A stretch of DNA of 1,647 nt, taken from the NCBI RefSeq assembly GCF_003334765.1, contig NZ_QOWT01000077.1; one strand, 5' to 3'. Below, piece by piece: positions 1-1,647 of the stretch (position 1 is the first letter of the stretch; every line of letters starts with the position of its first letter). The notes under the pieces were generated by a model. The model did not search any database and had not been told where the DNA came from. It saw only the letters and a program-made list of their open reading frames with translations. This DNA is from Escherichia coli. GTDB lineage: Bacteria; Pseudomonadota; Gammaproteobacteria; Enterobacterales; Enterobacteriaceae. The translations under genes and the position numbers were made by a program.

Positions 1-77
1 ACCAACCGCATGGCTGCCTGTTCCGTGCAAATGGGCTTTGCAGGGGGCTGGCGCGGTTCCTGGCGACCTGAAAGCCC
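1..77. repeat. Terminal direct repeat, copy 1 (identical to 1571-1647); circular-closure overlap
   Basis: Base-by-base identity of 1-77 with 1571-1647 (77/77). The repeat sits exactly at both window ends, the signature of a circular molecule written linearly with a k-mer overlap. Implied unit length is 1570 bp. Confidence 0.9.
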
Positions 78-264
78 CTGGTTAGGGGTATCGGCGCGCT
101 TGACCTCCTGAGAGCCTCTGTAAGCGTTTTTCGCGCCTTCCATGCCCTGGCGGGCATCTAAAACCCGTTTCGTGCGTCTGAGAGCTTTTGAGCGCGTTTG
201 AGGGGCTATCTGGCGACTCATCCCCAAAAGAACAACACCGGGATCACCGACAACATGCGAGAGG

Positions 265-328
265 TGATCCCGCTCGCCGCAAGTCGATGACCGAGCGTAG
301 CGAGCGAATCGACGAGGAAGCGGAAGAG
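265..328 (-). other. ColE1/pMB1-like block downstream of bom (candidate single-strand initiation / primosome-assembly-like site)
   Basis: The minus strand reads CTCTTCCGCTTCCTCG ... CTCGCTACGCTCGGTC ... GCGGCGAGCGGGATCA. From memory this resembles pBR322/pUC sequence between bom and ori (CTCTTCCGCTTCCTCGCTCACTGACTCGCTGCGCTCGGTCGTTCGGCTGCGGCGAGCGGTATCA), with a 16-bp identical run and roughly 80-85% identity over about 60 bp. It contains a CGCTCG/CGAGCG stem. The functional label is inference. Confidence 0.5.
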
Positions 329-364
329 AACCGGAAGCCACATTGAGCACTTACGCACTGATGC

Positions 365-389
365 GGGGTGTCGGGGTGAAGCCCTGACC
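365..389. repeat. Left arm of 25-bp inverted repeat (inverted partial copy of the bom arm)
   Basis: GGGGTGTCGGGGTGAAGCCCTGACC is the reverse complement of 613-637 at 24 of 25 positions (mismatch at 377/625). The two arms are separated by 223 bp. Confidence 0.9.
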
Positions 390-394
390 AAGTG

Positions 395-432
395 GTAATC
401 GTATCGGCGTGCATGCGCGGTTATACGATTAC
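395..432. repeat. Hairpin-forming inverted repeat (10-bp perfect stems GTAATCGTAT / ATACGATTAC, 18-nt loop containing GCATGC)
   Basis: 395-404 is the exact reverse complement of 423-432. It lies between the left IR arm and the tandem repeats. Confidence 0.8.
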
Positions 433-539
433 ACATCCTGTCCCGATTTCTGAGGCGTTTTAACGGTGAACGGACGGCAAAAACACGATGGAGCTGTTGA
501 ACGTGAAAACCACGAAATCTGGCAAAAATCACGGCTGGC

Positions 540-581
540 GAGGCTTGCATAGGAGTAAGCGAGGCTTGCATAGGAGTAAGC
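540..581. repeat. Perfect tandem direct repeat, 2 x 21 bp (GAGGCTTGCATAGGAGTAAGC)
   Basis: 540-560 and 561-581 are identical. On the minus strand the repeat begins exactly at the predicted nick (GCTTACTCCTATGCAAGCCTC twice). Confidence 0.95.
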
Positions 582-640
582 CAGTATACACTCCGCTATC
601 GCTACGTGACTGGGTCAGGGCTTCGCCCCGACACCCCCAA
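577..640 (-). other. ColE1/pMB1-type oriT (bom) with predicted nick between 580 and 581 on the minus strand
   Basis: The minus strand reads GGGGGTGTCGGGGCGAAGCCCTGACCCAGTCACGTAGCGATAGCGGAGTGTATACTGGCTTA. From memory this matches the pBR322 bom region (GGGTGTCGGGGCGCAGCCATGACCCAGTCACGTAGCGATAGCGGAGTGTATACTGGCTTA) with only about 3 substitutions. The nick is placed by analogy to the CTGG/CTTA context. The pBR322 sequence is recalled, not aligned. Confidence 0.75.
613..637. repeat. Right arm of 25-bp inverted repeat (part of the bom/oriT)
   Basis: GGTCAGGGCTTCGCCCCGACACCCC pairs with 365-389. Confidence 0.9.
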
Positions 641-641
641 A

Positions 642-666
642 GGGCGTTGCGTTGCACGCAACACCC
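642..666. repeat. Hairpin (10-bp stem with one mismatch, loop TTGCA) flanking the oriT
   Basis: 642-651 GGGCGTTGCG pairs with 657-666 CGCAACACCC. The loop and right arm contain CACGCAACA (655-663), which recurs at 781-789 next to the rep promoter. Confidence 0.7.
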
Positions 667-675
667 TTGCCTAGA

Positions 676-731
676 ATAGATCTTTTACGCCGATTTGTAA
701 GTGGTTGTTTTTTTAGTGTGTTTTTTATTTA
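676..731. other. AT-rich tract, candidate DNA-unwinding element of the Rep-dependent origin
   Basis: A run dominated by A/T (TCTTTTACGCCGATTTGTAAGTGGTTGTTTTTTTAGTGTGTTTTTTATTT) between the oriT-like region and the palindromic repeats upstream of rep. The functional assignment is inference. Confidence 0.35.
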
Positions 732-781
732 CCTGTCGCATCCAGGATGAAACAACGTTGTCGCATCCTGGATGCGACAAC
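731..781. promoter_or_regulatory. Operator/iteron-like repeats: 25-bp perfect palindrome (757-781) plus degenerate upstream copy (734-755), each centred on a CCWGG site
   Basis: 757-781 GTTGTCGCATCCTGGATGCGACAAC has perfect 12-bp arms around a central T. 734-755 TGTCGCATCCAGGATGAAACAA repeats the left arm and core 25 bp upstream. Half-site TGTCGCATCC occurs at 734-743 and 759-768, and inverted at 771-780. It sits immediately upstream of the candidate rep promoter. Confidence 0.5.
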
Positions 782-794
782 ACGCAACAAGGTG

Positions 795-824
795 TTGCAC
801 AGATGTGTCATGATGGCTTAGATT
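795..824 (+). promoter_or_regulatory. Candidate sigma70 promoter for rep (-35 TTGCAC 795-800, 18-bp spacer, -10 TAGATT 819-824)
   Basis: Hexamers read directly from the sequence. The position between the palindromic operator-like repeats and the rep RBS fits an autoregulated rep promoter. Not experimentally anchored; alternative weak hexamers exist in the AT-rich tract. Confidence 0.35.
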
Positions 825-852
825 TGAACCAACGTTAGTGCATGGGATTTTC

Positions 853-858
853 AGAGGG
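853..858 (+). promoter_or_regulatory. Shine-Dalgarno sequence for the rep CDS
   Basis: AGAGGG lies 8 nt upstream of the ATG at 867. Confidence 0.6.
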
Positions 859-866
859 AAAAAATC

Positions 867-1343
867 ATGTTTATTGATTCAGAAAAACGACTGAAACAAC
901 TTTCAGATGAGGCAAAGAAAAACACCGAGGATCTCGAAGAAGCAAAGAAAAATTCAAGGTTTACACAGGTATCCCCAAAAGGTTGGGAACGTGTTCGAGA
1001 GCTGCTGAAGGATAGCCAAGGCATATCAGCACTGAAGCTGTACTCATTTTTAGCGGAGCATATCGATCCTACGTGTGGCGCTGTCGTTGCGGATCAGCAA
1101 TTCCTAGCTGAAAAACTTGGAGTTAGCAGAAGCACAATTATTCGGTGGCTCAATTACTTAGAATCAAAAAATGCATTAGTTAGAATCCCCGTTGCTGGTA
1201 AGGTTTGTGCGTATGCCCTCGATCCACATGAAGTCTGGAAGGGATACAACACTACGAAAAACCATGCAGCGTTTGTCACTAAAACACTGGTCAACAAAGA
1301 CGGTGATATTCAGCGCCGAATCATGGCCATGTTTTCAAATTGA
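867..1343 (+). CDS. Putative plasmid replication initiation protein (small winged-helix/HTH Rep), 158 aa
   Basis: ATG at 867 with a Shine-Dalgarno AGAGGG at 853-858 (8-nt spacer) and TGA stop at 1341-1343. It is the only long ORF without Arg/Pro/Trp-rich low-complexity composition. The C-terminal half has an HTH-like segment (QQFLAEKLGVSRSTIIRWLNYLESKNALVRIP) typical of winged-helix DNA-binding domains of plasmid initiators. It lies just downstream of an AT-rich tract and palindromic repeats. No HUH or catalytic-Tyr motifs, so not a rolling-circle Rep. The Rep assignment rests on context and motif, not on a homology search. Confidence 0.8.
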   Translation: MFIDSEKRLKQLSDEAKKNTEDLEEAKKNSRFTQVSPKGWERVRELLKDSQGISALKLYSFLAEHIDPTCGAVVADQQFLAEKLGVSRSTIIRWLNYLESKNALVRIPVAGKVCAYALDPHEVWKGYNTTKNHAAFVTKTLVNKDGDIQRRIMAMFSN

Positions 1344-1478
1344 GCTAGCGGCAGGCGGACAATCAGGGGCTACGTGTTAACGTTCTGACCATGATTGTCT
1401 ATCCTGCATTGCTCTTTTGCCGCCTCAAAATCCTTTGCGTGTTTTTGCTCCCCGTTCTCCAGAAAAAACCGAGCCGCC

Positions 1479-1532
1479 ACGGTTCCGGCAGCGCCTTGAG
1501 CGCTACCGGAAACCGTCTGGGGAGAACCCCAG
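1479..1532. repeat. Nested inverted repeats / hairpins in the GC-rich region
   Basis: ACGGTTCCGG (1479-1488) pairs with CCGGAAACCGT (1506-1516), enclosing AGCGC-CTTGA-GCGCT. A perfect hairpin CTGGGG-AGAA-CCCCAG follows at 1517-1532. No adjacent T-run, so these are not intrinsic terminators. Confidence 0.6.
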
Positions 1533-1570
1533 ACCCCCATCGCTGCAACACCGACGGTCTACGACCACCT

Positions 1571-1647
1571 ACCAACCGCATGGCTGCCTGTTCCGTGCAA
1601 ATGGGCTTTGCAGGGGGCTGGCGCGGTTCCTGGCGACCTGAAAGCCC
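1571..1647. repeat. Terminal direct repeat, copy 2 (identical to 1-77)
   Basis: Same 77-nt sequence as the window start. Most likely redundant sequence, not a biological repeat. Confidence 0.9.

Follow-up and report, generated by a model that had tools for sequence, protein, structure and literature searches.

A 1570-bp pKL1-type plasmid of Escherichia coli, written linearly with a repeated 77-bp end, carries two oriT-like segments and a 21-bp tandem duplication

The window, i.e., the whole 1647-base stretch of DNA that was analysed, holds a replication gene, repA, preceded by an A+T-rich region, two short segments resembling origins of transfer (oriT), a short tandem duplication, and a 77-nt sequence present at both ends. 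The features, in window coordinates, are as follows:

1–77, no strand: closure overlap, first copy; genuine plasmid sequence, single in each circular record examined
364–462, plus strand: oriT of the IncI/K (R64-like) type, without a relaxase gene; ~90% identity to a region of pRM8385-1
365–393, no strand: left arm of a 29-nt inverted repeat (GGGGTGTCGGGG...), 93% complementary to the right arm
538–579, no strand: two tandem copies of the 21-bp unit GCGAGGCTTGCATAGGAGTAA, equally written as 539–559/560–580
574–643, minus strand: ColE1-type oriT (bom); 95–100% identity to ColE1-like plasmids
609–637, no strand: right arm of the 29-nt inverted repeat, 93% complementary to the left arm
650–866, plus strand: A+T-rich region with the predicted origin and repA promoter/operator, assigned from repeats, a GC content of 36–46% and identity to pKL1
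867–1343, plus strand: repA, a 158-aa helix-turn-helix replication initiator and putative autorepressor, assigned from the ORF, identity to pKL1 and Pfam HTH_36
1571–1647, no strand: closure overlap, redundant second copy; its removal leaves a unit length of 1570 (1549 + 21)

Sequence comparison identifies the 1570-bp unit as the known cryptic E. coli plasmid pKL1 (NC_002145.1, 1549 bp), of replicon type Col(MG828). Records were rotated to a common start before they were compared with the window. Relative to NC_002145.1, the pKL1 type record, in which one gene is annotated, the window shows 1 substitution and 23 gap columns (a 21-bp insertion and two single-base indels); relative to a modern record, pMTY14759_Col (L014, 1549 bp), it shows 1 substitution and the 21-bp insertion only. 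Since L014 shares the state of the window at the two single-base positions, these indels are probably errors of the 1997 pKL1 sequence. The plasmid pKL1 of E. coli KL4 agrees with the window in gene content and gene order, in RepA (WP_000469298.1, identical), and in its origin region and oriT segments, whereas the second tandem copy of the 21-bp unit at 538–579 sets the window apart from it. Reportedly, pKL1 was studied by Burian et al. in 1997 (Plasmid 37:2), 1999 (J Mol Biol 294:49) and 2003 (Biochemistry 42:10282).

A megablast search of PLSDB with the 1570-bp unit recovered 335 records with a coverage of 80% or more. Nearly all of them are plasmids of 1549–1570 bp typed Col(MG828), from E. 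coli and in some cases from Klebsiella, Shigella and Salmonella. Among complete RefSeq E. coli genomes, 293 out of 5426 (~5%) contain a copy, in nearly every case as a small plasmid of its own. In reviews, pKL1 is cited among the smallest natural plasmids (PMC12839544).

The RepA protein contains a Pfam HTH_36 domain (E = 3.5e-8); an NCBIfam search returned weak matches at the level of the helix-turn-helix only, and a sequence search of the PDB found no solved structure of a RepA relative. Compared with L011, the most distant relative fetched, repA has accumulated 32 substitutions, of which 27 fall on the third position of a codon; 30 codon changes are synonymous and 2 non-synonymous. This codon pattern indicates that repA is under strong purifying selection, and it is the sole ORF for which evidence of selection was obtained.

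Upstream of repA the GC content falls to 36–46%, as compared to 55–65% in the remainder of the plasmid, and a 12+1+12 palindrome at 757–781 is accompanied by a partial copy at 734–756, both the same as in pKL1. There, the oriV, which contains Rep-binding sites together with a perfect inverted repeat, sits upstream of rep (PMC3832669), and PMC12361487, citing Burian 1999, describes control by Rep autoregulation alone, in which neither iterons nor antisense RNA take part. Within the window, a search for the IHF consensus WATCAANNNNTTR gave no exact match, even though an IHF box has been reported for pKL1; the DnaA box consensus likewise had no perfect match, and no sigma-70 consensus promoter passed a simple scan. 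An Rfam search of both strands at a permissive threshold produced two sub-threshold chance matches and no RNA I/II or antisense RNA family. With the mechanism taken from the pKL1 literature or by analogy, RepA would act as a winged-helix/HTH initiator and the sole replication protein, binding to repeats of the A+T-rich origin that immediately precedes repA, and would repress its own promoter, leaving copy-number control to Rep alone.

In PLSDB, 2259 records match the window, most of them in just two short segments, 364–462 and 574–643. The first segment matches plasmids of 75–94 kb at ~90% identity, and its counterpart in pRM8385-1 (IncFIB/IncI-gamma/K1, MOBP) is intergenic, located directly upstream of a nikA-like mobA and a relaxase gene. 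It features a strong hairpin at 395–432 (single-strand DNA fold z = -2.55) followed by ACATCCTG/TCCCG (ACATCCTGTCCCG), where the slash, here and below, marks a nick or boundary. A hairpin followed by ACATCCTGTCCCG is presumably the layout of R64/RP4-type nick regions. The second segment, read on the minus strand, is 95–100% identical to the rop–mobC interval of many ColE1-like mobilizable plasmids, e.g., p5217, and this similarity stops at ...GTGTATACTGGCTTA. If the ColE1 nick is CTGG/CTTA, as we take it to be from the MbeA literature, the predicted nick separates positions 581 and 580 of the minus strand. The two oriT segments are inversely oriented and face each other, and the 29-nt inverted repeat is common to both.

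ColE1-type plasmids share with the window a ~65-bp bom/oriT segment that extends up to the nick core CTGG/CTTA. Membership of the window plasmid among ColE1 (RNA-primed) replicons was rejected, since this likeness is limited to the oriT segment and no Rfam match rose above noise: unlike ColE1-type plasmids, it has no RNA I/RNA II replicon and no rop or mob genes, and its replication would depend on a Rep protein.

The plasmid carries no relaxase gene or transfer genes, and repA is its only conserved ORF. With no relaxase of its own, transfer would therefore need relaxases in trans, and spread by this route is most likely, judging by analogous systems. The two short oriTs mimic those of IncI/K-type conjugative and ColE1-type mobilizable plasmids, and the plasmid would spread with relaxases and mating machinery borrowed from other plasmids in the same cell; the nick positions and mobilization itself are predicted by the same analogy. 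In the literature searched, no documentation was found of mobilization of pKL1-type plasmids through either oriT. For other small plasmids, PMC9282650, citing Moran & Hall 2019, describes two inversely oriented oriTs in pBuzz and its mobilization by a B/O plasmid, and pEC156, a small oriT-only plasmid with a functional 93-bp R64-type oriT, is mobilized by a relaxase in trans (PMC4743918). Like the window plasmid, pBuzz and pEC156 have no relaxase gene, and pBuzz further resembles it in having two inversely oriented oriT mimics, of which one belongs to the I-complex (R64, B/O, K) type. They differ from it in replication: pBuzz replicates by the rolling-circle mode and pEC156 by the RNA-primed mode of ColE1, and the window contains a RepA/HTH_36 replicon instead.

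The first-pass annotation had described the window as a 1570-bp circle with identical ends probably produced by assembly. Positions 1–77 and 1571–1647 indeed agree at 77 out of 77 positions, with a start-to-start spacing of 1570 and the repeat flush with both ends of the 1647-base window. A length of 77 is the only k at which the prefix and suffix of the window match exactly, and the probability of an exact 77-nt match by chance is ~4^-77. The terminal identity is not a product of chance.

Circular records provide the context of this 77-mer. It occurs once, exact and inside continuous sequence in L001, L002, L003 and L004, all of which start elsewhere, and once with 2 mismatches, likewise inside continuous sequence, in L009, which has yet another start point. 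Over its full length, the 1570-bp unit is matched by hundreds of entries of 1549–1570 bp that were submitted as complete circular plasmids. In addition, the IncF plasmid pCTX-M-27_d1-7 (L008) contains a 1557-bp segment between two directly oriented IS26 copies, bounded at both ends by the same 8 bp, CTCATTTT, which maps to window positions 1043–1050 within repA. The segment length equals 1549 + 8 bp, that of a permuted copy with an 8-bp target duplication, and this structure identifies it as an entire circle that IS26 cointegration opened within repA. The L008 copy passes the 1570/1 junction of the window uninterrupted. Because the permuted records and L008 cross 1570/1 with a single 77-mer, the molecule is a circle and its second 77-mer is redundant; the earlier proposals of a 1570-bp circle and of an assembly artefact are both upheld by these records, with their varied starts and continuous junction.

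The default set of de Bruijn k-mer sizes in SPAdes is 21/33/55/77. The number 77 presumably comes from a de Bruijn-graph assembler closing a circular path. We are highly confident that the window represents a 1570-bp circular monomer of the pKL1 family, written linearly with a 77-bp end repeated by the assembler. The finding is correct but ordinary: a known plasmid and an assembly artefact.

Two other readings of the terminal repeat were weighed. If the sample contained head-to-tail multimers (dimers or higher), the 77-bp repeat would be where a further unit begins, and not purely an artefact of the assembler. Small plasmids commonly form multimers, a 3096-bp RefSeq record (NZ_CP159752.1) resembles a dimer of a pKL1-type plasmid, and monomer and multimer are indistinguishable in a short-read assembly; however, the repeat measures exactly 77, a standard k value, and halts at the contig end, and the complete records are nearly all monomers of 1549–1570 bp, which makes this reading very unlikely. 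Even if it were true, the replicon unit would stay 1570 bp. That the 77-mers form a genuine direct repeat around a copy integrated in the chromosome or a larger plasmid has a negligible probability: integrated copies are known (pCTX-M-27_d1-7 and NZ_JBUZKL010000002.1), but the one in pCTX-M-27_d1-7 is bordered by IS26 and the 8-bp target duplication in repA, with no 77-bp plasmid repeat, and the window lacks any non-plasmid flank, its repeat stopping exactly at the window ends.

In the circular monomer, a single ORF crosses the 1570/1 junction, running from 1391 to 111 and encoding 96 aa (RefSeq WP_157806413.1, a PGAP 'hypothetical protein'). It was rejected as a gene, since substitutions are spread evenly over its codon positions and relatives contain a frameshift or early stops in it. 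Because this ORF is not conserved, the linearisation does not interrupt any real gene, and the earlier caution about features divided at the junction becomes moot.

The 21-bp duplication is the only length difference between the window and the 1549-bp pKL1. The unit is present as a single copy in ~500 PLSDB records, and two or three copies were found in only 5 records of PLSDB and RefSeq E. coli:

L002 and L003, 1570 bp: two copies
L010, 1573 bp: two copies
L011, 2078 bp: two copies
L009, 1665 bp: three copies

Position 13 of the unit is G in all five of these records and T in both copies of the window. The window allele, with T in both copies, is absent from PLSDB and complete E. coli genomes, and an exact-pattern scan for the duplication junction with either allele found nothing in IMG/VR viral or JGI metagenome contigs.

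Between a duplicated plasmid and its single-copy sibling we counted 1 substitution for window/L014, 4 for L010/L013 and 7 for L002/L012, while the duplicated lineages lie 15–79 substitutions apart. The 1570-bp variants NZ_OZ039830.1 and NZ_CP070003.1 have the length of the window's circular unit and show the 21-bp duplication at the identical site, but they differ from the window by 19 substitutions and carry G instead of T in both repeat copies. Since they bear the G allele and their nearest single-copy relative is L012, their duplication arose separately. The distribution of the T and G alleles indicates that the 21-bp unit was duplicated independently in at least two lineages, and independent duplications probably occurred in three or more; this recurrence may be a new observation. 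A 1527-bp record, whose length (1548 - 21) made it a candidate for the reciprocal deletion of the 21-mer, was rejected: it has a different backbone and another Rep.

Written in the register 539–559/560–580, the unit lies exactly between CTGG/C on the plus strand (535–539) and CTGG/C on the minus strand (584–580). The latter is, as we take it, the predicted ColE1-type nick core. The 1570-bp unit contains six CTGGC motifs on its plus strand and one on its minus strand, and the left boundary of the 21-bp unit reads CTGT/C in L009 and CTGA/C in L011. Hairpin-assisted slippage could have made the duplication, but the direct homology flanking the unit that might support it amounts to only 1–2 bp. 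Tentatively, and with the odds against it, the geometry of the unit suggests that the duplication could be a trace left by relaxase activity and not by random slippage. Under such a scheme, a ColE1-family relaxase supplied in trans would nick at the oriT and, after 21 nt of displacement synthesis or when a transfer round terminates, would rejoin at a pseudo-site, ...CTCG; mis-rejoining of this kind would leave a tandem copy beginning at the nick.

If the relaxase scheme were true, these tiny plasmids would retain a scar of earlier mobilization in their sequence, and the 21-bp duplication could make relaxase action on hitchhiking plasmids readable from sequence. Its recurrence next to the predicted nick is the only point here that might repay further work; the biology is otherwise known, that of a tiny, widespread E. 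coli plasmid with one gene and two seemingly borrowed origins of transfer.

For the sequence record, the contig needs trimming to 1570 bp and a pKL1-type (Col(MG828)) label, as its size, copy number and gene calls are otherwise distorted. The risk is illustrated by the public record pS21EC_C, 1640 bp in length, in which a 91-bp internal duplication breaks repA and resembles an untrimmed overlap.

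The sole difference in length between the window and the 1549-bp plasmid pKL1 is a 21-bp tandem duplication (window 538–581). The duplication was found repeatedly, in lineages separated by 15–79 substitutions, and one 1665-bp record (L009) has three copies of the unit. Inverted CTGG|C motifs (535–539 and 580–584) mark its exact boundaries, in one register, and the right-hand motif is the predicted nick site of the ColE1 type.

Both oriT segments, the IncI/K type and the ColE1 type, open with the same GGGGTGTCGGGG... arm, which gives rise to a 29-nt inverted repeat (365–393 and 609–637) with the arms 215 nt apart. 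The motif of this arm is similar to GGGTG/GTCGGG, given in PMC5935869 as the nick sequence of CloDF13, and in the plasmid pEA5_4 (L007) the same two oriT segments flank a rop gene. The GC content is 36–50% across the origin and repA module (window 650–1400) and 55–65% in the rest of the window, which holds the two oriTs; this split suggests two modules differing in origin.

One annotated ORF spans the linearisation point:

1391–1570 and 1–111, + strand, WP_157806413.1, 96-aa hypothetical protein (RefSeq annotation)

No coding conservation was seen for this ORF, and relatives carry broken versions.

At window 614, 626 and 1386/1387, the 1997 pKL1 reference sequence (NC_002145.1) shows one substitution and two indels of a single base relative to both the window and the modern 1549-bp record pMTY14759_Col; the older sequence was probably misread at these sites. 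In the "complete" record of pS21EC_C (NZ_CP076691.1, 1640 bp), repA is broken by a 91-bp internal tandem duplication, with a stop at codon 79: positions 1031–1212 correspond to two copies of window 1000–1090, probably a closure overlap left untrimmed and then rotated to the middle of the record. The 49-nt oriT/21-mer probe also matched records labelled Corynebacterium renale (NC_004833.1, 1488 bp, 100% match), Staphylococcus, Acinetobacter and Morganella, and these labels may reflect contamination or mislabelling.

An entire pKL1 circle was found integrated in pCTX-M-27_d1-7 (NZ_AP040930.1, 3001–4557), a 137-kb IncF plasmid, where it lies between two direct IS26 copies and adjoins mph(A) and blaCTX-M-27. 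The insertion point is located inside repA (window 1043–1050), with an 8-bp target duplication, CTCATTTT; the structure is a classic IS26 cointegrate. NZ_JBUZKL010000002.1 is listed as a second record with such an integrated pKL1 copy.
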